From positions 1 to 18,288 of the forward strand of contig JBNJGH010000051.1 of NCBI GenBank assembly GCA_051747585.1: a DNA stretch of 18,288 bases, read 5' to 3'. Each line of letters starts with the position of its first letter. Position 1 is the stretch's first letter. The stretch comes from Candidatus Rifleibacteriota bacterium. GTDB lineage: Bacteria; Muiribacteriota; Ozemobacteria; Ozemobacterales; Ozemobacteraceae. Under the pieces are notes generated by a model. That model saw only the letters and a program-made list of their open reading frames with translations. It did not search any database and was not told where the DNA came from. Below, piece after piece: positions 449 through 18,245 of this stretch. Made by a program: the position numbers and the translations under genes.

Positions 449-2218
449 TCAGGAGATTCTTATAGCATTACTCAATAAGCTTGACCGGAAAATAACTTCT
501 CTAACTTCTTTTTTAAATGAATTATGACGCTTAAACATTTCAGAATAATACTTCCTGATAATTGTATTCGCTTGTTCCTTGTTTCCCTGGCTTAGAAATG
601 ACTCCGCCATGGCACCCAGGGTTAAAGCGGCTCTGCCATAGGCTTTTCTATGTTGGTTGGAAACAATTTGCTCAACTCGTTTTTTTCCCAGAGCAACAGC
701 CCATTTAAAATATTTTTTAGCGCTGGACTCAGTATTTTTTGAGCTTTTAAGACCTTTAAGTATCTCATTATAGAAAGTTGTTTCTCCAACTTCCTGATCT
801 TCTGAAAGCAAAAATGAATAAACCGAGGATCTGGCGGCATAATTTTCTATTAATTTTTCTAAAATACTGGCGTTATCAGGACAGTCAGCTGCTATATAAA
901 GTGCTGCGCCAAACATTAAACCCGCATTAAAACCGTATGACCAGCCAACAAAGCTTTGATCTTTTGCAAGTAAAAAGGCTTCTTCAACTTTCCCGGCCAT
1001 CAGCAAAACTTTTAAATGCAGAGATTTCAAATTTCCATCTCTTTTTCGTAGACGCTTAAAATAAAATAAAAGAGTTTCTAATTCTTTATCCCTTACTTTT
1101 TGAACAACAGCCTCGTTTTGAATTTCAAGCAAATTTTTATCGCATGGGTATGAAAAAAATTTCTCTCTTTTCCCTTCTAAAGTTATTTTCTTTTTATTCA
1201 AAAGTAACCCGGCATCGATCAGCAAATCGCATGCCTTTTCTCGAACCTCTCCCGGCTCAAGGACATTGAGCGCTTCCTTGCTGATTTTAACAACCTCATC
1301 ATACCTTTCAAGCCCATTTAAACGTTCCAGCCAATACAAGTAACCATCAGGTTGCATGTTTTTCCAGTCTCTTGCAATTCTGGCGATGCCATTCAACCCC
1401 TCAAGTTTATCTACAACTTCAACTAATAATCTTGCCGGTCTGCCCTGGCATCCCTTTTTCTCAAGAAAACTCTTCCAGGCTTCACAAAAAGAATCCAGAT
1501 CGGGCATTTGGGCAACCTTAGTGTTTATAACATCACCCAATAACGGAAAATTCGGATTATCAAACTGTCTTTCATTATAGTCGCTTGTCTCATGTAACAT
1601 AAGCGATGCAATTTTTTTCAATCTGGTCTTTGGCTTTGAGGCTTCATAGACGGCACGCACATACCTGGCCCTTTCCTCGCAAATATTAAGCCCAAATCGA
1701 GAAAAATCAATCCAATGATCATAATTGTATTCATTCAATATTTTGAATACTCCAGAATAAATCTGCTCTGCCTCTTCACTTTGGTTGTTAAAAAAGTATC
1801 GTTGAGCAATTTTTAAAAAAGAAACAAGCTCTGATATTTGTCGTTCACTTAAGTAGTCTGGCGCTTGATCATCATAATAGTCATATTCTTGCCAGTCCCA
1901 GTCTTCAAGCTCGTCATATTCTCCATTTTCAATCAATCCAACCCTATCTTGAATTTCTTCAAAAAGAATCTTAATTGCCTTAAGTATTTTTTCGGTTGAA
2001 CTGGCTTGTGCAGCTATTTTTTCTGGTTTACTCAAAGATTTGGCTGCAATAGCCGACCGGAATTCTTCGAGGAAAAATTCACGCGCAACCGTAGGTTTAT
2101 TTTTTGCCAGTTCAATCAGAATCTCTACCAACTCATTTTTGCTAAAATTTTCACATGCATTTTTTATTGTTTGCAAATAAGGTTTTAGTCCAATATCTCT
2201 AACTTTCATACAAAACAT
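449..2218 (-). CDS. Hypothetical alpha-helical protein (589 aa). The C-terminus resembles the helical tail of SWIM-finger-associated proteins, but no SWIM motif is visible.
   Basis: Long ORF with upstream AGGAAG and an alternative ATG at 2209. Acidic patch YDELEDWDWQEYDYYDD. C-terminal HRKAYGRAA...RHNSFKKEV. Confidence 0.85.
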   Translation of the reverse strand: MFCMKVRDIGLKPYLQTIKNACENFSKNELVEILIELAKNKPTVAREFFLEEFRSAIAAKSLSKPEKIAAQASSTEKILKAIKILFEEIQDRVGLIENGEYDELEDWDWQEYDYYDDQAPDYLSERQISELVSFLKIAQRYFFNNQSEEAEQIYSGVFKILNEYNYDHWIDFSRFGLNICEERARYVRAVYEASKPKTRLKKIASLMLHETSDYNERQFDNPNFPLLGDVINTKVAQMPDLDSFCEAWKSFLEKKGCQGRPARLLVEVVDKLEGLNGIARIARDWKNMQPDGYLYWLERLNGLERYDEVVKISKEALNVLEPGEVREKACDLLIDAGLLLNKKKITLEGKREKFFSYPCDKNLLEIQNEAVVQKVRDKELETLLFYFKRLRKRDGNLKSLHLKVLLMAGKVEEAFLLAKDQSFVGWSYGFNAGLMFGAALYIAADCPDNASILEKLIENYAARSSVYSFLLSEDQEVGETTFYNEILKGLKSSKNTESSAKKYFKWAVALGKKRVEQIVSNQHRKAYGRAALTLGAMAESFLSQGNKEQANTIIRKYYSEMFKRHNSFKKEVREVIFRSSLLSNAIRIS

Positions 2219-6060: not shown

Positions 6061-6095
6061 CAAACCGTTTCAACTTTTTAAGTTGAAACGGTTTG
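6061..6095. terminator. Perfect 16-bp inverted repeat between convergent genes, likely bidirectional terminator
   Basis: CAAACCGTTTCAACTT-TTT-AAGTTGAAACGGTTTG, 5 nt past the stop of 6101..6658. Confidence 0.75.
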
Positions 6096-6100
6096 TTGTT

Positions 6101-6658
6101 TTAGTAAAGATACAAAAGACCGCAACCAAGCTCTGGCTTTTGCCCTAAGGGTTTTAAGGTTAAAGCTTCGAGCTGATCTGGTGATTGGATTGCTAAAGTC
6201 CCTGAGAGAGTTATGGTTTGCTGCGAATAATTTTTATCATTTTCAATGTAGTAAATACAGTTGTCAGGGCCATGTTTAACTTCTCGTATCTCGGCGGCGT
6301 CTTTCAGCTGTTTCGCAAACCATGAGCAAACAGAATCGAAATTTTTGACCGGGTCGAAGTTTTTGTTTCTATTCGGGACCAGAAATATCGAAAACCTTTT
6401 GCTCTCGCCTGGAGACAATTCGCTTTTGTCTTTTTTGCCGCTTTCAAACAACTGAAATTCTTTATTTACATGCATTTTGGGCGCTGTTTTTGAATAAACC
6501 AGAACTGGCACTACGACACCGATTTTGTACCACTCGAGACGATATAGATAGTCTTTGCCGGCTTGTGTCTCTTCCGGAAAATATCCGGAAATAGCACGGT
6601 TTATATCTGGTGGATTGTATATCTTTTGTCTGTTTAACAGGAATTTACTTACATACAT
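6101..6658 (-). CDS. cas6e: Orphan Cas6e/Cse3/CasE-like RAMP protein, probably nuclease-inactive
   Basis: Collinear similarity to E. coli CasE as I recall it: MYVSK/MYLSK, YFPEETQAGKDYLYRLE/LFPNRPDAARDFLFHVE, VLVYS..P/VLLQS..P, WFAKQLKDAAEI/WLQRKLGNAARV, QTITLSGTLAIQSP/QTVCFEGVLTINDA, LGQKPELGCGLLYL/IGPAKSMGCGLLSL. Confidence 0.8.
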   Translation of the reverse strand: MYVSKFLLNRQKIYNPPDINRAISGYFPEETQAGKDYLYRLEWYKIGVVVPVLVYSKTAPKMHVNKEFQLFESGKKDKSELSPGESKRFSIFLVPNRNKNFDPVKNFDSVCSWFAKQLKDAAEIREVKHGPDNCIYYIENDKNYSQQTITLSGTLAIQSPDQLEALTLKPLGQKPELGCGLLYLY

Positions 6659-6684: not shown

Positions 6685-7773
6685 TTAGATAATCGACGCA
6701 TCGGTTTCTCGTTCAACCTGAGTCTGAGAATCAAAATCCATTTTACCTTTGTCTTTGTCAGATTTTTTAGCCATTTTATTTTTAATAAATATGAAAGCCA
6801 TTACAGCTACAGGTAGTATATAGAACCACAGGAAAAAAGACCCGGTGTCGGTTATTCCGGCGGGTGTTGATTCCGGGGCCCAGCGTAAGCGATCAATATT
6901 GAAAAGTATACAGATAATCGAGGTCCAGACGAAAAAGAAATTTGGAATAGCGTCTGAAGCACTCATAAGGCCAAGACCGTCGGTTCTATCTTTGGTAAAG
7001 GGGTAAAAAAGATTGTTACCCATAAAGCCAAGCGAGTCTTCGATAATGTGAACCATAGAACCAAACAATATAATTAACGGGTATAAAAGCCAACGCGGCA
7101 AAGTATACATCTCGGGGTTCGGCCCTTCAGCTACGGTAAAGAAGGTAATAAGACCGACGATAAAAGAAATAAGAAGCCCTAGAGTAAAGCTGTGTGACCA
7201 GGTTCGGTGCCAGGGTAGAAAAACAATTTCAATTTTACCGTTATCTCTTTTTACAAACTCAAAGCAAGGTCCGGACATAATGGATATCGATGATTTTTTG
7301 TCGAATTTCTGAAAAAATTCACAATCGACTTTTACCCGTGCTTTTGCTTTTTCGGGATCCTTTAATTCAGTTCCGATAAACGGGGTTTGCCCGGTATCAA
7401 CCAGTGGGCCAATTTCGACCACAACTTCGCTGGTAGAAGAATCAAACCAGAGATCGTAGCTGCGCCATAAATTTGAGCCAAGCTGCATAGTATGAAGCTG
7501 AACCGTACCACGCCCTTCTTTGTTGGCTTTTTCAACTGCTTTGGCAACCGTGTTGGCAATCACCCGCGCATCGAGATTGTCTGGATCGGGATGCACTTCA
7601 AAGTCTGATTTATGAAAATAGCGGGCGAATTTAAAATCTAAAGTATCGGGAAGAATTCCAAAAATTCCTCCGAGACATAGAATGAATGATTGCTCTTGAG
7701 AGGCCATGTGAACGGCCTGCGGAAAGAAACTGGCAACTGCAATGCCACTTATAAAATGTGTAAAACCTTTCAT
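6685..7773 (-). CDS. Membrane-bound metal-dependent hydrolase (YdjM/DUF457-like) with a large soluble insertion
   Basis: Family motifs MKGFTH, GILPDTLD, HRTWSHS and HIIED..G...FYPF. Several transmembrane segments. Confidence 0.85.
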   Translation of the reverse strand: MKGFTHFISGIAVASFFPQAVHMASQEQSFILCLGGIFGILPDTLDFKFARYFHKSDFEVHPDPDNLDARVIANTVAKAVEKANKEGRGTVQLHTMQLGSNLWRSYDLWFDSSTSEVVVEIGPLVDTGQTPFIGTELKDPEKAKARVKVDCEFFQKFDKKSSISIMSGPCFEFVKRDNGKIEIVFLPWHRTWSHSFTLGLLISFIVGLITFFTVAEGPNPEMYTLPRWLLYPLIILFGSMVHIIEDSLGFMGNNLFYPFTKDRTDGLGLMSASDAIPNFFFVWTSIICILFNIDRLRWAPESTPAGITDTGSFFLWFYILPVAVMAFIFIKNKMAKKSDKDKGKMDFDSQTQVERETDASII

Positions 7774-7774
7774 A

Positions 7775-9121
7775 TTATATTAACCCCAGAAATCTTAAAA
7801 CTTCGTTACCGTAACCGGCCATGTTTAAACAGATAGGCATTAACAAAACGCCCATTAAATTCATTCTTCTTGCCTGAAATAGAACAGGTAAAAGGCCGAT
7901 TCCGGTTGCTACCGCCATTATTGCCATACCACCAAGACCGGTAAAGCTGTAGATAGCCGGCACGATTAATAGCAGCGCTATAACTGAAACCCAGTGATAA
8001 TCTATTTTTTCGACAAGTCTCATGCACCATCTGGTAAATGGTAGAAGAAGCAGAAACGAAAGACCGGCTGCAAAAAGCATTATGGTAACAAAAAGAAAAT
8101 ATTCTTTTAAAGTCAGAACCGAAACAACCGGTGTTACAATCCAGGCCAGACCACCTCTGGTTAAGCTGAGTCCTGGAACAAAGAAAAACAGAAAGGAGCC
8201 AACATAGTAAACTGTTTTACAGGTTCCATAAGACATAACAAACAGACGACTGTCTCGCTGGGCTGTGGCATGTCCGGCCATCAGTCCACCAACACCGGCG
8301 GTTACAATGGGAACAAAAGCAGCGACGAAACCGCCGAGAAAACCACCCAGTGTGCCTCTTGTAAATAATGCCCAGTCAAGTTCTATTGATTCGGCAACAT
8401 GCTGAGGAGGAACTTTGCCTATGTTAATCAGATTGGTAATCAACCAGGGTATTGCAAATAAACCGACAAAAACCGGGGTGATGCTTTGAAAGGCAAAGTC
8501 TAAGGGTACCATTGTTCTTGTTAAAACAATAAACCCGAGAATTCCGGATAAAACAAAGGTAATAATACCGACTGACAGGAATTTCCAGCCTTCAAAAAAG
8601 TTTGTCCAGCAGCTTTTTGATTGACTTACTCCTTTGGGCCATTCAGACAATATCATGTAAGAAATTACTGCCCCTAGAATCCAGAAGATGTGGGGGCTGG
8701 TAATTGTTTTTAAAGCGGGCATAATGTGAATAAAAGCTGGAGCAAGAACTGCAAGAAGGATCAAGCCACCGATTGAACCAACTCCGGTTAAAATTACTGA
8801 TTCGTAGCCTCGTCCTTTAGCAACCCAGGCTGCGCTTGGAAGTACATAGTAAGATATGCTTTCGTCACCGGGACCAAAATAAGTGGCCGGAACAGTGTTC
8901 AAAATTGAATAACCAACAACCATGCCGATACAAACAGCAATTAACTGCATTGGGTCCATGCTGTCCTGAAATTTTAAAACGAACATAAGAAAAATACCGA
9001 CAACGTTGTAGATATGCAAAGCTGGTAAAAAGGAAATTAACATCGAAAAGAGAACACCAAGAGAGCTGAAATAAAAAAGATCCAGATACTGAGGATTAAG
9101 AATAGTTTCCAGTATTGTCAT
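7775..9121 (-). CDS. TctA/DUF112-family permease, archaeal-like subtype
   Basis: Highly hydrophobic 448-aa protein with motifs FLPALHIYN, NTVPATYFGPGDE, VLP......GRGYE and PVFVGLFAIP. Confidence 0.85.
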   Translation of the reverse strand: MTILETILNPQYLDLFYFSSLGVLFSMLISFLPALHIYNVVGIFLMFVLKFQDSMDPMQLIAVCIGMVVGYSILNTVPATYFGPGDESISYYVLPSAAWVAKGRGYESVILTGVGSIGGLILLAVLAPAFIHIMPALKTITSPHIFWILGAVISYMILSEWPKGVSQSKSCWTNFFEGWKFLSVGIITFVLSGILGFIVLTRTMVPLDFAFQSITPVFVGLFAIPWLITNLINIGKVPPQHVAESIELDWALFTRGTLGGFLGGFVAAFVPIVTAGVGGLMAGHATAQRDSRLFVMSYGTCKTVYYVGSFLFFFVPGLSLTRGGLAWIVTPVVSVLTLKEYFLFVTIMLFAAGLSFLLLLPFTRWCMRLVEKIDYHWVSVIALLLIVPAIYSFTGLGGMAIMAVATGIGLLPVLFQARRMNLMGVLLMPICLNMAGYGNEVLRFLGLI

Positions 9122-10164
9122 GAATCATCTCCTGAAATTTCGCTCTCCTGAGCTGATTCAGAGGCGGTATTTACAGTTGATGCTTTATTCGTGGTGCTTT
9201 CTTTAATTGTCGAGCTAACTTTTTCTGTTGCAGAGCTAACCTTTTCGGTTGTGGTTGCATTTTCAGAATTGCCTGTTTTTGACTCTGAGTAATCCTGGGT
9301 ATCATTATTTTCAATTTCGACTCTGGAAATAACTTCAACCGCTTTTTTGCGCAGAACTTTTATCTCAAGGTCATCTTTAAAAGTTTCCACTTTGCCGACT
9401 ACGCTTATGAGATCGCCGGGATTTAATTCGAAGTTCCAGTCCAGATATTTTTTGTCTATCCAAACAGGCAGGCCGAATTTTTTGCCGTTATCAAGATTTA
9501 TTATCATGCCGGAATCAAAACTTTTAGTGCTTAATACGCTACCGGTAGTTTTTACAAAAGTGTTAAGATGTTTGTGTGCCAGCTTTTCGGGCGCAACACT
9601 TTTTATAACATCCGGTTCTTCATTTACTCTTTTTATGTAATGAAGATGCTCATGTGCGTTTATCAATAAGCTGGGTTCGTCTTTGCTGAAGCGAACCTGA
9701 CCTTCTACCGAAACTATGTCGCCTTTAACGGGAACCAGATTACTTTCCTCTATAGCCTCAGCGACCTTGGAATAAGCAGACACTCTTATGGTTTTTTCTT
9801 CGTCTCCCTCGTCGCCCTGAGAGATTATAAAATAAAGAGAACCCCATTTTTTATGGATGCCAAAGCTTTTATCTACTCTACCCTGAACTCTAACATGGGC
9901 AAAATTGCTTAAAGGGCCAAGATCACCTATTTTTACCAGTGGCGTCTGTACACTTTTTGCGTAAAAAAGCAGCAATATAAGACCAACGGTTGAGGTCAAA
10001 ATAGCAATGACTTTAAAAGCTCTAACTGAAAGGCGTTTTCCTACCAGTGCCTGACAGTATGGACAGCGCGTATAAACCCCGGTAAAGCGTCCGCAGCTGG
10101 GACAATGGGTTTCTTTGTGATAACGTTCATCCTGTTTTGTTTGTGTCTCTTTTTCCTTTTCCAT
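9118..10164 (-). CDS. Membrane-anchored protein: N-terminal Zn ribbon, one TM helix, two OB-fold-like domains, Ser/Thr-rich tail
   Basis: CPSCG...CPYC and TM VIAILTSTVGLILLLFYA. OB-fold signatures VRVQGRV...KGDIVSVEGQV and VKTTGSV...PGDLISVVGKVETFKDDLEI. Overlaps the permease gene by 4 bp (ATGA). CGAGGAAG RBS. Confidence 0.85.
   Translation of the reverse strand: MEKEKETQTKQDERYHKETHCPSCGRFTGVYTRCPYCQALVGKRLSVRAFKVIAILTSTVGLILLLFYAKSVQTPLVKIGDLGPLSNFAHVRVQGRVDKSFGIHKKWGSLYFIISQGDEGDEEKTIRVSAYSKVAEAIEESNLVPVKGDIVSVEGQVRFSKDEPSLLINAHEHLHYIKRVNEEPDVIKSVAPEKLAHKHLNTFVKTTGSVLSTKSFDSGMIINLDNGKKFGLPVWIDKKYLDWNFELNPGDLISVVGKVETFKDDLEIKVLRKKAVEVISRVEIENNDTQDYSESKTGNSENATTTEKVSSATEKVSSTIKESTTNKASTVNTASESAQESEISGDDS
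9212..9253 (-). repeat. Imperfect 21-bp tandem duplication in coding sequence (TEKVSS repeat)
   Basis: GAGCTAACTTTTTCTGTTGCA followed by GAGCTAACCTTTTCGGTTGTG. Confidence 0.7.
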
Positions 10165-10179: not shown

Positions 10180-12084
10180 TTAGAATGCTGTTTTTAAAAC
10201 CTTTTCAAGGTGTCTTACAACTTTTTGGGGGTAGTGGGGCGGTATAATCTGTGGAAAAGCAATTACCACAGCTGTTGCCCCGGTATGTGAAATTTCGTAA
10301 TCGCTGCCCGCCATAACCTTAAGTTTAACCGGGTGTTCAGAATTTTTAAGACTGAATGCAAGACTGTCTGCAATAAACTTTCCTTTGCCGCCGCGATGAT
10401 AATGTCTTGCATTGATTGTGCCGCAATTTTCTCTTTTAAAAGATAAAATCAGATCAAAATCATCTGCAAGATTTGCTTCGAGAACCGCTTGATATTCGGG
10501 ATGTCTCATAGTTTCAGGCATTGAAAGTCTGGCGACTTTTGCTCCTGCTTCAGTCAGAGCAGACTCAAACTCTTTTAGTAGATTTCCAAAACTTCGTGGA
10601 GCCAGAATGCCGATTTTTTTTCCTAACAATCTCTGTGAAACCGGCGTTAACCTGATATTTTTGAAGCTTACCGGCTCACCTTTTGTTTTTATCCAGCTGG
10701 TGGTTTTCTTGTATCCGGCAGGAGGAATAATTTTCAGGTGTAGATTTTCATAAACCATTGGATATTCAAGATAAAAATAACCTCCAACTGCTGTTTTTAT
10801 CTTTTTAAGGCCATAATCAAGTTCAACGCCTTTCAGCCCTTTGCCTGAGCGATCTGTGACTTTTCCAATAACAAATCGATTCACAGGTTCTTTAACTTTG
10901 ATCCATTTATTTTCGATTATTTGACTGTCGTGAACCAGTCTGATCTCCAGAGAACCTCTTTCTTTTCCGGTTAAATCAAGCAAGGCCAGCGATTGACCAT
11001 CTTCATTTGTATTCAGAATTGTTTCGCCTTGATCACCATAGCAAACGGCGATAGATGTCGATCTGGTATTTAAGCTACCTTCGCTGTCATGCAAATCGAT
11101 CTGAACCGGAAACTTGCCTTTGAAACCTTCAGGAATAAATGGAGCGACAGGCTTGATAGCACCGCCGGCCAGGGGTAATTCTATCTTTATTGGCAGGTTG
11201 ATTTTGGGGGAAACCGTGCCGTCATTAGCCTGAAAGGTTAGTTTTAAATTATAGGTTCCACTTTGAAGTGATTCGGTGTTGTAAAGGCGATAAGTGTTAC
11301 TGACCGTGGGTAGCAGGTCGAAGCCAAAGCTGGTGTTTGAATTTGCCATTCTGGCTTTTAATTTTGCAATCGGTTTGTTTGCGGTAAAAATAAAGTTAAA
11401 AAAGGGCGTATTAATTTCTACGGGCTGGTCTGCAACCAGAAATTTTATTTTTAAAGGGCCTTTGGAAAAGGTTTTGCGAATAGCTCTTCTCAATGCTTCT
11501 GCCTGATTGGTGAGCTCTTTTCCTGTTTTCAGTCCTTTTTCAATTTCCGGAATAGAAATGTAACTTCCTTCAGTCAATATGGCCGGAGCTTCGTTATTTC
11601 TCAATACAAAGAATCCACCCGGAACAATAATGGAGTTCTGGCCAAAGCCATGACTTTTTAGTTTATCAAACATATCCGTGCCCGCTGTTTTGCTAAGGCC
11701 GGAATCAAGGGCATTGTAGTAAATTTCGCTACGGTTTTTTTTGCGTGGCGTAATAGAGGCGTTATGATGAATAGAAACAAAAAGGTCTGGCTTTAGTTGT
11801 CGGGCTTTTTGTACCCTCTGACTGAGAGAAAGATATTTATCCGTATCTCTGGTCATAAATACTTCCGCTCCATCTGCCTGCAGAAGCATTTTTAAATAAC
11901 GGGCTACCCTTAAATTCGTTTCCGATTCTTTTAAGCCCGTAGGGCCTACTGCACCAGGATCTGCTCCACCATGTCCGGGGTCGAGTAAAATTCTAACTCC
12001 TTTTAATGGATTAAGGACAAGAGCAGAAGCACTGGCAGAGACCAGCAAAAAAATAAACAAAAATACGAATTTGTTTCTCTTCAT
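10180..12084 (-). CDS. Secreted N-acetylmuramoyl-L-alanine amidase (Amidase_3) with beta-rich middle domains and a degenerate second amidase-like domain
   Basis: Signal peptide. Catalytic motifs ILLDPGHGGADPGA, KESETNL, MTRDTD, FVSIHHNA and VLRNNEAPAILTE. Confidence 0.93.
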   Translation of the reverse strand: MKRNKFVFLFIFLLVSASASALVLNPLKGVRILLDPGHGGADPGAVGPTGLKESETNLRVARYLKMLLQADGAEVFMTRDTDKYLSLSQRVQKARQLKPDLFVSIHHNASITPRKKNRSEIYYNALDSGLSKTAGTDMFDKLKSHGFGQNSIIVPGGFFVLRNNEAPAILTEGSYISIPEIEKGLKTGKELTNQAEALRRAIRKTFSKGPLKIKFLVADQPVEINTPFFNFIFTANKPIAKLKARMANSNTSFGFDLLPTVSNTYRLYNTESLQSGTYNLKLTFQANDGTVSPKINLPIKIELPLAGGAIKPVAPFIPEGFKGKFPVQIDLHDSEGSLNTRSTSIAVCYGDQGETILNTNEDGQSLALLDLTGKERGSLEIRLVHDSQIIENKWIKVKEPVNRFVIGKVTDRSGKGLKGVELDYGLKKIKTAVGGYFYLEYPMVYENLHLKIIPPAGYKKTTSWIKTKGEPVSFKNIRLTPVSQRLLGKKIGILAPRSFGNLLKEFESALTEAGAKVARLSMPETMRHPEYQAVLEANLADDFDLILSFKRENCGTINARHYHRGGKGKFIADSLAFSLKNSEHPVKLKVMAGSDYEISHTGATAVVIAFPQIIPPHYPQKVVRHLEKVLKTAF

Positions 12085-12090
12085 GCTGTC

Positions 12091-12118
12091 ATATTATCAC
12101 ATGATCTGGGATGGTCAA
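12091..12118 (-). promoter_or_regulatory. Putative sigma70 promoter, possibly leaderless start of the amidase operon
   Basis: Minus strand TTGACC-N16-TAATAT-N6-ATG, with an overlapping TGTGATAAT. No Shine-Dalgarno visible. Confidence 0.5.
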
Positions 12119-12125
12119 GCAATTA

Positions 12126-12150
12126 GAAAAGAATTGAGCTAATATTTCCA
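12126..12150 (+). repeat. 25-bp direct repeat, copy 1
   Basis: GAAAAGAATTGAGCTAATATTTCCA is identical to 12331-12355. Confidence 0.95.
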
Positions 12151-12330
12151 TTTGTTTGTAAAAAACTGTTTCAAGACATTTAGATTGCTTCGCTTTGCTC
12201 GCAATGACAGCCCCACATTGTCATTGCGAGGAGCATAGCGACGAAGCAATCTTTAATCATCTAAGATTTATTAATCATAAAAAAATAAAATGTCATGAAA
12301 CGCGCTAATAATATTAAATGGAGAACGACT
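12146..12330 (-). mobile_element. Non-autonomous MITE/REP-like element, copy A
   Basis: Subterminal IR GTTTCAAGACATTT (12168-12181) / AAATGTCATGAAAC (12288-12301). Inner arms AGATTGCTTCG...CTCGCAATGAC and GTCATTGCGAG...CGAAGCAATCT. End-to-end similar to the reverse complement of 17938-18245. Confidence 0.8.
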
Positions 12331-12355
12331 GAAAAGAATTGAGCTAATATTTCCA
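12331..12355 (+). repeat. 25-bp direct repeat, copy 2 (overlaps the stop codon of the J-domain gene)
   Basis: Identical to 12126-12150. It contains the reverse complement of TGG AAA TAT TAG (W-K-Y-stop). Confidence 0.95.
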
Positions 12356-13255
12356 GTTCATTTTTTCGGCAAGTTCTTTAAAAGCCTCTTCCTGCTCTGG
12401 CTTTAAGTCTTTTGGAATAATCACTTCAAGTTTAACCAGTAAGTCTCCACCAAGTCCCTGACCACGCATTCGCAAGACATGACCGCTTTGGCTGCCTGAA
12501 GGAACGGTGAGTATAAAATCTTCACCGCGGGGGCTTTTCAGCTTGATTTTGCTTCCCAGGACTGCCTGGGCCAGATTAATGCTGATAGTGGTTTCAATAT
12601 TTTTTCCTTTTATTTTAAAAGGATGCTCGTCTTCAATATTTATTTTAAGGCTGAAATCGCCCTGATAGGTTTTTACTTTAAGTACTTTATGGTTGGGCGT
12701 TTCCGGGGGGATGGTTACGTTCTGGGTGCCGCCCGGTAGTCCGGTAACCGATATCTTGCCACCTTTTATTGCGGTAGAGAGTGGTATTTTAAGAGTGGCG
12801 TCGGCTTGTTGTCCACCGCCACGCTGAGCCCTGCCTCCGCCAAAAAGGTTTTCAAAATTGCCAAAGGGCGAGCCGGAGGTTCTGGTTGTTCGGCTTGTTC
12901 TGCCACCGGAACTGAAGCCGCCAAAACTTCTCAGTATCTCTTCAAACATATCGGCACCGCCGGCTGAACCGGAACCCGAAGATGAATAAAAAAAGTCTCC
13001 GAAGGGCCCTTCTTTGGAAAAGCCTTCAAAATTGTATGAACCACGGCCTGTTCGTGCGCCATCATATTTTTTACGCTCTTTATCGCGACTCAATACCTCG
13101 TAAGCTTCTGATATTTCTTTGAATTTTTCTTCTGCTTTTTTGTTTCCTTTATTGATGTCGGGATGATACTTTTTAGCCAGCTTTTTAAAGGCTTTTTTTA
13201 TATCTTCTTTGCTGGCACCCTCGGAAACACCAAGTATTTTATAGTAGTCTTTCAT
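12344..13255 (-). CDS. cbpA: DnaJ class B / CbpA-like co-chaperone
   Basis: J domain KDYYKILGV...KKYHPD...[12 protein letters not shown], a G/F-rich region, no CxxCxGxG zinc finger, and a DnaJ C-terminal domain ([13 protein letters not shown]). Confidence 0.9.
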
Positions 13256-13436: not shown

Positions 13437-15275
13437 ATGTATACGGTAAAAAGATTTTTAACACTGTTTATTCTGGGGATGGCAATTATAGCTGCACCAG
13501 GTATGACAGCACAGCAGCAGGCTTGGTATGATGCCACTCATATTTTTGAAGAAGATGTTGATAAGCTTGTTAAAAACGTAAAACTTGAAACTAAAGTAGA
13601 AAGAGCAAAAAGAGTAAAAGCTCCATTACCGGAAAAAAGAAATTATAAAGTCGGAGACGTAGAAACTTTCTGGACTAAAAATATTGTCGAAAATAAATTT
13701 GAACAGACTAAAGCCGAACTTAAAGCTATTGGCAAACACTGCTACATTTTTGTAGAACAGGGAAAAAGTCTTTCGGATGAAGTGTTTGAAAATGTTCGCA
13801 AACAGTTTGATGAGGTAATTTATCCTACTAACACCTCAACCTTTGGGTTTGAATGGAAACCAGGCATTGATGGTGACGAAAGAATTACTCTGTTAATGTT
13901 TGATATTAAAGATGGCTTTGACGGCACAGGTGGGTTTGTCGGTGGTTATTTCTTCGCCGGTGATCAGTTCTTGAATTCACAGATTCCACCTAGTTACAAT
14001 ATAAAATCTAACGAACGCGAAATGTTCTATCTCGATATTAACCCTTCAGACCCAACCAAAGATCATTACATGTCTATAGTAGCGCATGAATTTCAGCACA
14101 TGATTCATTTTGCCCACGATTCAAAAGAAACTACCTGGGTTAACGAAGCCTGTTCTCAGATTGCCCCTTACCTTTGCGGTTTCGGGCATGCAAATCAAAT
14201 TGTTTCATATATGAAAACACCTGATAACAGTTTGACTGCATGGGCAGAGGACCAAATGGTAGCTAATTACGGTCAGGTATATCTTTGGAACTACTACATC
14301 TACAACCGTTTTCTCGCTAACGATAACAGTCGCAAGGATTTCTTCAAAAAGCTGGTTGACTCTAAACAAAAGGGTATTAACGGTTATGTAGAGGCTTTTA
14401 AAGCCCTGGATGTAACTTTTGACGAAATGTTCGAAAGATTTGCAGTTACTAATTTTATTAACAATCCTGAGCTTGGTAAGAAAAATGAGTATGGTTATGA
14501 CAAAAGTCTCGGTCGCTTGAAACTGCCGGTAAGTGAAACAGTTAAAGCTATCCCTGCTGAGATTGAAGGCGAAGTATTGTTCTGGAGTGCTGATGCAATC
14601 AAAGTTGATCTTGCCAATGCCAAATCTAAAGTTGATATAAGCTTTTCGGCTCCAATGCACAGTCTTGATGCAAGTCATTTTAATACATTTTCTGTAGCTG
14701 TAATAGAGAAAAATTCCAGAGATAAAGTAACTCCTAAAATCACATACATTGATGTTAAACAAAATGCATCTGAAAAAATTCAAGCTGGAAAAGTGACAAT
14801 TGTTCCTACCAAGGAATATGACACTGCTATGATTGTTGTTATTGGAACTGCTCCTGAAGAAGCTGATGAAAATATCTACAAAAAAGCAAAAGCAGTAGGC
14901 TACAGCGTCTCAGTCAAGGATGCCGGTCAGACTGTAAGCAGGATGGTCGCAAGTGCAGATGCAAATGAGATGGTAAAAGATTACGCACGTTTTGCAGTCA
15001 GCGATAGCGAATCGAATGAATCAGCCATGATGATTCGTTTTAACAACCTTGAAACCATTAGTTTTGAGCTTTCCAGAAAAGTGAAAAACGATCTCGACGC
15101 AGGTAATCTTGAAAGTCTCGATACAATTATTGACCAGGCTTCAACTGGAAAAATTGAACTGGAAAGCATCAGACCCCTTATAAATAAAGTTCTTGGTGTT
15201 GCTGAATTTAAAGCTAATCAGGAAAGTGATAATTTCGAACTTGAACAAAGAATTAAAACTCTGAAGAGCTTCTAG
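13437..15275 (+). CDS. Secreted zinc metallopeptidase (gluzincin, M30/hyicolysin-like)
   Basis: Signal peptide and AGGAG RBS. AHEFQHMIH followed by WVNEACS. Upstream PGIDGDERI, GGYF and SNEREMFYL motifs. Confidence 0.88.
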   Translation: MYTVKRFLTLFILGMAIIAAPGMTAQQQAWYDATHIFEEDVDKLVKNVKLETKVERAKRVKAPLPEKRNYKVGDVETFWTKNIVENKFEQTKAELKAIGKHCYIFVEQGKSLSDEVFENVRKQFDEVIYPTNTSTFGFEWKPGIDGDERITLLMFDIKDGFDGTGGFVGGYFFAGDQFLNSQIPPSYNIKSNEREMFYLDINPSDPTKDHYMSIVAHEFQHMIHFAHDSKETTWVNEACSQIAPYLCGFGHANQIVSYMKTPDNSLTAWAEDQMVANYGQVYLWNYYIYNRFLANDNSRKDFFKKLVDSKQKGINGYVEAFKALDVTFDEMFERFAVTNFINNPELGKKNEYGYDKSLGRLKLPVSETVKAIPAEIEGEVLFWSADAIKVDLANAKSKVDISFSAPMHSLDASHFNTFSVAVIEKNSRDKVTPKITYIDVKQNASEKIQAGKVTIVPTKEYDTAMIVVIGTAPEEADENIYKKAKAVGYSVSVKDAGQTVSRMVASADANEMVKDYARFAVSDSESNESAMMIRFNNLETISFELSRKVKNDLDAGNLESLDTIIDQASTGKIELESIRPLINKVLGVAEFKANQESDNFELEQRIKTLKSF

Positions 15276-17937: not shown

Positions 17938-18245
17938 AGTTGTTATCCACTTAGTAATATTAGTAGGTTTCAAGACATTTTTGTTTTTTTTAAATATTAA
18001 AATTTAGAATATTAAAGATTGCTTCTTCGCGATGCTCCTCGCAATGACAATTTGGGACTGTCATTATATATTGGTCATTGAGCGTAGTCGAAATGACCAA
18101 TGGATGGTTACAGGGTCCCTTCGACTACGCTCAGGGACCGCTTAGGGGGTCATTGCGAGGAGTTCTGCGTAGCTTTATGCGAAGCAGAACGACGAAGCAA
18201 TCTAAATGTCTTGAAACGGTTATTACAAACAAATGGAGAATTACT
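17938..18245 (+). mobile_element. Non-autonomous MITE/REP-like element, copy B, with nested insertions
   Basis: Imperfect terminal IR AGTTGTTATCCACTT / AAATGGAGAATTACT. Perfect 14-bp subterminal IR GTTTCAAGACATTT (17967-17980) / AAATGTCTTGAAAC (18204-18217). Same inner arms as copy A. Confidence 0.8.
18066..18148. repeat. Nested REP-like pair of the TGAGCGTAGTCGAA / TTCGACTACGCTCA type
   Basis: Hairpins at 18070-18101 and 18114-18139 have mutually complementary 14-nt cores. The segment is flanked by GTCATT at 18060-18065 and 18149-18154 and is absent from copy A. Confidence 0.8.

Follow-up and report, generated by a model that had tools for sequence, protein, structure and literature searches.

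The locus and its three coupled genes

The stretch of DNA considered here (the window, 18,288 nt of contig JBNJGH010000051.1) comes from a Candidatus Rifleibacteriota bacterium whose 4.14-Mb genome assembly is 93.55% complete, a figure that applies to all the whole-genome negative results given below. On its reverse strand lie three coupled genes. The first (9118–10164) encodes a membrane-anchored OB-fold protein of 348 amino acids (aa), recognized by Pfam PF01336 in two stretches (E 3.5e-7) and by hydropathy; the second (7775–9121) encodes a TctA-like (DUF112-type) permease of 448 aa (PF01970, E 1.2e-32; model predicted local distance difference test score, pLDDT, 94; placed also by trees); and the third (6685–7773), which did not figure in the preliminary description of this DNA, encodes a YdjM-family membrane metal-dependent hydrolase of 362 aa (PF04307, E 7.4e-15; model pLDDT 83; supported by co-occurrence). 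The open reading frames (ORFs) for the OB protein and permease overlap by ATGA at 9118–9121, and the hydrolase gene starts 1 nt past the permease stop codon. Both the overlap and the permease motifs singled out previously (PALHIYN, PATYFGPGDE and VLP...GRGYE) are present in these ORFs.

The permease and its relatives

In trees (FastTree on 126 rows; IQ-TREE on 55, 49 and 25 rows), the permease stands apart from canonical TctA on a long branch (SH-aLRT 100), as would be expected if, as had been supposed, it were not the TctA of a TctABC system; the 12 'canonical' rows were picked by a high PF01970 score and a length of about 500 aa, their TctB and TctC neighbours being unchecked. Its best BLAST score to these 12 was E 6e-4; with 12 archaeal proteins of about 400 aa the values ran from 1e-43 to 1e-31. 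Residues H36 and R322 are common to both OB-linked permease subfamilies, where canonical TctA instead has G and small residues. The noncanonical permeases are split (100/100) into a class of about 400 aa (median 406, n=33) and one of about 440 aa (median 441, n=81; canonical TctA 506, n=12). The earlier suggestion of a short archaeal DUF112 form was thus right about the branch, which is of DUF112 type with P-x-x-H and R-x-G motifs present, but not about the subfamily, which is that of about 440 aa. Named members of the ~400-aa class are archaeal, plus cyanobacterial plasmid copies. The ~440-aa class holds the window permease, Chloroflexota, Spirochaetes and archaea (Thermococcus kodakarensis, Methanomethylicaceae and an Altiarchaeales label); a view of this clade as mainly bacterial was dropped, further rows being from Thermococcus and Methanomethylicaceae. 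The nearest named homologues carry the label Candidatus Riflebacteria, and the DUF112 protein BAD86236.1 of T. kodakarensis aligns over 435 aa with 34% of residues identical (E 2e-86).

Acquisition of the permease from archaea, as previously proposed, is not supported. Among the 25 named rows (a set without P0106), the 15 bacterial ones came together in 0% of 200 bootstrap trees, although an approximately unbiased test did not reject a single origin for them (p-AU 0.2), so transfer between archaea and bacteria may have run either way; retention across the phylum (see below) argues against a recent acquisition.

The preliminary description had pointed to the absence of tctB and tctC from the window, and this holds for the whole source genome, in which neither TctB nor TctC found a match (controls matched in 3 and 4 of 14) and which has only one TctA-family gene. 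The best structural neighbours of the permease model are solute carriers: YS1 (Z 12.0, root mean square deviation 13.1, 272 aligned), INDY (Z 6.7), and ArsB, TRAP and YdaH (Z 4.7–5.8), with root mean square deviations of 4.3–8.7 at Z 4.7–6.7 for comparisons with elevator carriers of the INDY, TRAP, ArsB and AbgT types; all of these score below the level under which the tool advises caution with helical proteins. Sequence searches of the PDB with permease and hydrolase profiles gave 0 matches at E up to 1, and with neither model did Foldseek find a match of E 0.001 or lower.

The OB protein

The OB protein begins with a CxxC-x9-CxxC zinc ribbon (about 10054–10104, reverse strand, as are all its features), followed by a single transmembrane (TM) helix (about 9958–10011; hydrophobic segment, residues 45–72), two OB folds (about 9637–9906 and 9340–9597) and a low-complexity acidic tail. 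Residues C21, C24, C34, C37 (the four cysteines of the zinc ribbon) and R44 are invariant in 24/24 aligned relatives. Just before the TM helix there are four K/R and no D/E, compared with two and one after it, and this charge bias suggests that the zinc ribbon is inside and the OB folds face the periplasm. Some relatives have longer OB arrays, one with up to six folds. Comparison of profiles by hhalign (96.6%, E 7e-10) shows the protein to be homologous to the short partner, with a single OB fold, that accompanies archaeal-type permeases, and against the PDB its profile found 22 sequences at E up to 1, mostly nucleic-acid-binding OB folds, each a weak match (RPA2, E 0.023; YhaM, 0.03; Stn1, 0.034; range 0.02–0.9).

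It had been suggested that the OB protein works with the permease as its substrate receptor. Modelling of the two together lends weak support to the pairing: the predicted complex scored 0.58 (best control 0.00), with runs agreeing in at least 87% of contacts and a partner pLDDT of at least 71. In calibration, the mark was reached by 116 of 157 solved pairs and 2 of 215 mismatched ones, and among those that reached it, 18 solved pairs and both mismatched pairs scored 0.60 or less.

The hydrolase

The third protein fits the YdjM family, with PF04307 over the cut-off and the His/Asp ligand set kept; M1, H6, D43, H189, H194, H242 and D246 are invariant in 24/24 relatives. Hydropathy predicts it to be membrane-embedded, and it carries an inserted beta domain of about 130 aa. 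A wide structural search with the whole-protein model gave neither phospholipase C nor P1 nuclease among the 50 matches listed (best Z 6.7). A Thermoflexus genome carries the inserted hydrolase twice in tandem, without linkage to the permease (L145 and L146, G090:C175), and at one further locus (L218:1725–3850) an archaeal-labelled permease of intermediate length, P0270, is followed by a hydrolase-like gene with the insert but altered ligand residues.

Conservation of the gene neighbourhood

Within the host phylum, the permease is present in 66 of 87 genomes and the hydrolase type in 67, each being found in 41 of the 44 genomes of high quality. By our own reading of the tables, 64 genomes have both, 18 neither and five only one. 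Where both occur they are adjacent in 57/64 genomes (all seven exceptions belong to family f11), and the genomes with two full permeases (G004, G005) also have two hydrolases. The OB gene lies directly upstream of the permease gene in 26 of 29 loci (L005–L033; the three misses end <250 nt upstream) and in 20/20 wider regions (L034–L053). As the spacing between the two varies among relatives, the ATGA overlap is unremarkable in itself, but the conserved adjacency exceeds chance.

An OB gene stands ahead of the permease gene in Riflebacteria, Anaerolineae, a spirochaete and archaeal-type loci alike. A scan of species genomes gave 364 confirmed relatives, the best 80 of which, ranked against an Anaerolineae query, comprised 78 labelled Chloroflexota, one Spirochaetes and one unclassified; an OB gene was found in 57 of the 67 of these loci with enough upstream DNA, 44 times directly adjacent. 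For the archaeal-type permease of about 400 aa, 80 of 580 metagenome loci (taxonomy not given) were kept, and 45 of the 62 with upstream DNA had an OB gene, mostly of a short TM–OB form, in keeping with the statement in the preliminary description that such genes are common neighbours of archaeal permeases.

At one locus (L054:1238–3976; G066:C65) a zinc ribbon, a TM segment, three OB folds and the permease are fused in frame (open frame of 913 aa, no Ns, one contig only), with a second OB gene before the fusion and a hydrolase gene after it. An apparent permease–hydrolase fusion in L083 proved to be an artefact of a run of N, and P0296 and P0299, which look like frameshifted joins, were left out. 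In seven Chloroflexota loci a large gene directly follows that for the hydrolase; the three that were scanned (L061:8405–11782, L076:5688–9530 and L125:9518–13267) all encode lamin-tail, PLD and DUF11 domains, and are candidate secreted nucleases or lipases.

There is no sign that the module is mobile, since viral contigs gave 57 pattern matches with no relative among them and permease relatives occurred in only 2 of 72,556 plasmid records. The two are cyanobacterial plasmids (L141:4195–6386, L147:4500–5915) with a permease of the ~400-aa class nested among archaeal rows; on the Cylindrospermopsis plasmid it comes after an annotated OB gene and before a gene for a nuclease-related domain. Our own OB profile did not match the plasmid OB protein annotated by RefSeq.

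ComEC and nucleotide synthesis in the host

The competence domain of ComEC (PF03772) has no match among the genes of the window, but two ComEC genes (725 and 977 aa) are present elsewhere in the source genome, on contigs C183 and C208 (L056:107–4618 and L055:1683–4297). Each adjoins a gene for a helix-hairpin-helix ComEA-like protein (by our own reading of the ORFs), and one is part of a ComEA–ComEC–metallo-beta-lactamase-like cluster. By eye, the C183 ComEC (725 aa) has an unusual C-terminal region where a recognizable nuclease domain would be expected. The host also has DprA and eight PilT-family matches over the cut-off. ComEC is found in 84/87 genomes of the phylum, in all 44 of those of high quality, and in 9/10 genomes of family f10, which is without the module, so the module is no substitute for ComEC. 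This weakens the proposal that it provides a ComEC-independent channel as the cell's route for DNA.

None of purM, purF, pyrB and pyrF was found over the cut-off in the host genome, and, judged from its gene content, the host appears to be unable to make its own nucleotides.

A module for the scavenging of nucleic-acid fragments?

Our preferred reading, to which we would give about an even chance, is that the three coupled genes specify one inner-membrane module that captures, imports and hydrolyses nucleic-acid fragments, most likely as nutrition for the host. The OB folds, predicted to face outwards, would hold the fragments on the periplasmic side of the inner membrane, and the OB protein would dock on the carrier in place of TctB and TctC, in the position of the TctC receptor. 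The TctA-like carrier would import the fragments, and the YdjM-type metal enzyme, with an inward-facing site and phosphodiesterase activity, would break them down for salvage, so feeding a cell that may be unable to make nucleotides. Such a route would run parallel to ComEC and not replace it. Scavenging seems the best reading because the host appears to be without purF, purM, pyrB and pyrF. Also in favour of such a module we count the joint inheritance of permease and hydrolase, the frequent OB gene by the permease in Chloroflexota-dominated and archaeal-type loci, the in-frame OB–permease fusion, the predicted complex and the PDB matches of the OB profile (both weak support), the genetics of the related archaeal pair, the lamin-tail/PLD genes behind the hydrolase in Chloroflexota, and H36 and R322, which set both OB-linked subfamilies apart from canonical TctA.

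Several observations weigh against this. Sugars and proteins are also among the ligands of OB folds, and the two of the window protein are not basic (K+R 15 compared with D+E 15 and 13). Among 65 Chloroflexota-dominated loci, no more than 15 have the hydrolase close to the permease (five adjacent); it was found in 4/5 of the genomes searched whole, and it occurs in only one of the 80 archaeal-type loci, in a degenerate form. The host keeps purD over the cut-off (G000:C15:28070–29308), all six of the 62 phylum genomes with purM over the cut-off carry the module, and family f10 is both without the module (0/10) and without purM over the cut-off (0/7). Within the phylum, then, auxotrophy does not cleanly predict the module, the purM-positive genomes being among those that carry it. 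ComEC, moreover, could already be supplying DNA as food. YdjM itself has been proposed to be a phospholipase (PMC8557891), and the archaeal permease studied genetically probably belongs to the sister subfamily (see below).

Two other explanations seem to us appreciably less probable than scavenging, each being unlikely on present evidence. According to one, the locus specifies a second transformation channel, through which long single-stranded DNA would be threaded into the cytoplasm for recombination, with the OB protein, carrier and hydrolase in the OB, channel and nuclease roles of ComEC. In its favour, T. kodakarensis, which is naturally competent, has a member of the ~440-aa subfamily, PilT and DprA are present in the host, and runs of as many as six OB folds in tandem would suit a long polymer; and a genetic study reports that both genes of a related OB–permease pair are essential for transformation in Methanococcus maripaludis, and a homologue of the permease in Methanoculleus thermophilus (PMC10133366). 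That study presents a DNA transporter only as the authors' hypothesis, so that the role may be indirect; and the host's two ComEC genes, the presence of ComEC in every high-quality relative, and the small-solute carriers that are the best structural neighbours of the permease model (below the caution level) all tell against a transformation channel.

According to the other, the module maintains the cell envelope: the ligand of the OB folds would be a glycan or the head group of a lipid, which the carrier would import or flip, and the hydrolase would act like a phospholipase C, the archaeal transformation defect then being an indirect effect on pilus or surface assembly. This would accord with the proposed phospholipase activity of YdjM, with the membrane-embedded nature of the hydrolase, with the near-universal, single-copy, housekeeping-like retention of the module (41/44 high-quality genomes), and with the recovery of pilus and surface-anchoring genes in the 2023 archaeal screen (PMC10133366). 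In the host family it would also accord with a co-oriented Amidase_3 gene (10180–12084, reverse strand; PF01520), which lies 15 nt upstream of the OB gene. The amidase gene has this position in 7/7 regions L034–L040 but in 0/13 of the more distant regions L041–L053, and was rejected as a component of the system, its synteny being confined to the level of the host family. The occurrence of the module in both bacteria and archaea, whose lipids and walls differ, and the (weak) resemblance of the OB profile to nucleic-acid binders, also fit poorly with an envelope function.

An ordinary TctA-family carrier for carboxylates or small anions, operating without a binding protein and with unrelated neighbours, would account for the Pfam TctA match over the cut-off and for the dicarboxylate and TRAP carriers among the structural neighbours, but it is made very improbable by the long branch separating the permease from canonical TctA, by the differing hairpin residues and by the conservation of OB and hydrolase partners across phyla.

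Flanking genes and other features of the window

Downstream of the hydrolase gene is an orphan Cas6e-like gene (6101–6658, reverse strand; PF08798, E 3.4e-9), outside the conserved core as is the amidase gene, and probably the last gene of the transcript. A 16-bp hairpin (6061–6095), terminator-like on both strands, follows between convergent genes. Of 52 phylum genomes, 18 have one copy each of the Cas6e-like gene, mostly just behind the hydrolase gene; these 18 all belong to the host family. Type I-E Cas7 had no match in the source genome, and a simple scan of it found no convincing CRISPR array (two 3-copy hits); possibly the gene product is a domesticated RNA-binding protein.

A promoter-like site at 12118–12091 is discounted as evidence of a promoter, since the scan gave 14 sites compared with 12.6 expected, and the single run of RNA data was uninformative, giving two short contigs only (243 and 156 nt). 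Between dnaJ and the amidase gene (12126–12358) is an element of about 177 nt with a 28-nt direct repeat (96%) on its flanks; it gave 160 BLAST pieces genome-wide, several of them full-length at about 84%, with another copy near 17938–18065, and looks like a small dispersed noncoding mobile element. Elsewhere in the window are a gene for a 612-aa HExxH metalloprotease-like protein (13437–15275, forward strand; NF045524 below the cut-off), which keeps its synteny in several relatives, and an ORF of 589 aa (449–2218, reverse strand) with no family over the cut-off.

Relation to known systems

For the channel by which naturally competent archaea take up DNA, the only genetic candidate, to our knowledge, is an OB plus TctA-like pair. 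The preliminary description had mentioned a requirement for a TctA-like transporter in the transformation of M. maripaludis, and this is real: as reported in a 2023 paper, neither MMJJ_13020 (OB, one TM) nor MMJJ_13030 (TctA-like, 11 TM) is dispensable for transformation, and the same holds for the permease homologue SAMN04488571_104187 of Methanoculleus thermophilus, while DNA transport by the pair is put forward there as hypothesis only (PMC10133366). A second paper lists MMJJ_13030 in an expression table (PMC11097638). Our literature search, outside which most subscription papers fell, found no paper on the trio or its bacterial copies, and no functional study of T. kodakarensis BAD86236.1.

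By architecture, the window pair resembles the published archaeal one: in both, a membrane-anchored OB gene stands immediately before a TctA-like gene, and TctB and TctC are lacking; the two M. maripaludis genes meet stop codon to start codon (primer DF1-226, PMC10133366). The window system differs in its bacterial host with ComEC, in the N-terminal zinc ribbon of its OB protein and in its third gene (the word 'hydrolase' does not occur in PMC10133366). Primer DF1-227 of the same paper, if 500-bp arms are assumed, places an S-G-x-L-G motif near residues 157–161 of MMJJ_13030; its median position is 164 in the ~400-aa class (n=28) and 185 in the ~440-aa class (n=53). From these primer positions, MMJJ_13030 probably belongs to the ~400-aa subfamily, so the window permease is probably a sister-subfamily relative and not of the type tested. 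A pattern derived from the M. maripaludis primers gave 0 matches in metagenome contigs.

Of the other systems with which it may be compared, the DUF112-family protein BAD86236.1 of T. kodakarensis shares the ~440-aa subfamily (100/100). TctABC shares Pfam PF01970, but the window genome has no match to TctB or TctC, and its permease is shorter (448 compared with about 506 aa), belongs to a separate clade and has H36 and R322. YdjM and the phospholipase C–P1 nuclease-like hydrolases share PF04307 (over the cut-off) and the conserved His/Asp set, but not the inserted beta domain of about 130 aa or the fixed linkage to a permease. ComEC combines an OB domain, a competence channel and a nuclease of metallo-beta-lactamase fold. 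The module has analogous parts (an outward OB fold, a membrane transporter and a metal hydrolase), but as three genes, and with a permease and hydrolase that have no Pfam homology to ComEC families.

It is conceivable, though we lean towards doubting it, that the OB protein and TctA-like carrier (with or without the YdjM hydrolase) represent a second nucleic-acid importer, unrelated to ComEC and common to archaea and a number of bacterial phyla. Strands of DNA or RNA would then be moved by a protein with the fold of a secondary carrier, serving as the missing archaeal transformation channel and as a feeder of nucleotide-auxotrophic anaerobic bacteria. The presence of the ~440-aa subfamily in the genetically tractable T. 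kodakarensis makes this idea testable now. The window trio is a variant of the known, mechanistically unsolved OB plus TctA-like system, being extended by an enzyme as third partner and stably inherited in bacteria with ComEC; that it is kept in such bacteria, apparently without nucleotide synthesis, would fit with nucleic acid being taken up as food as well as genetic material.

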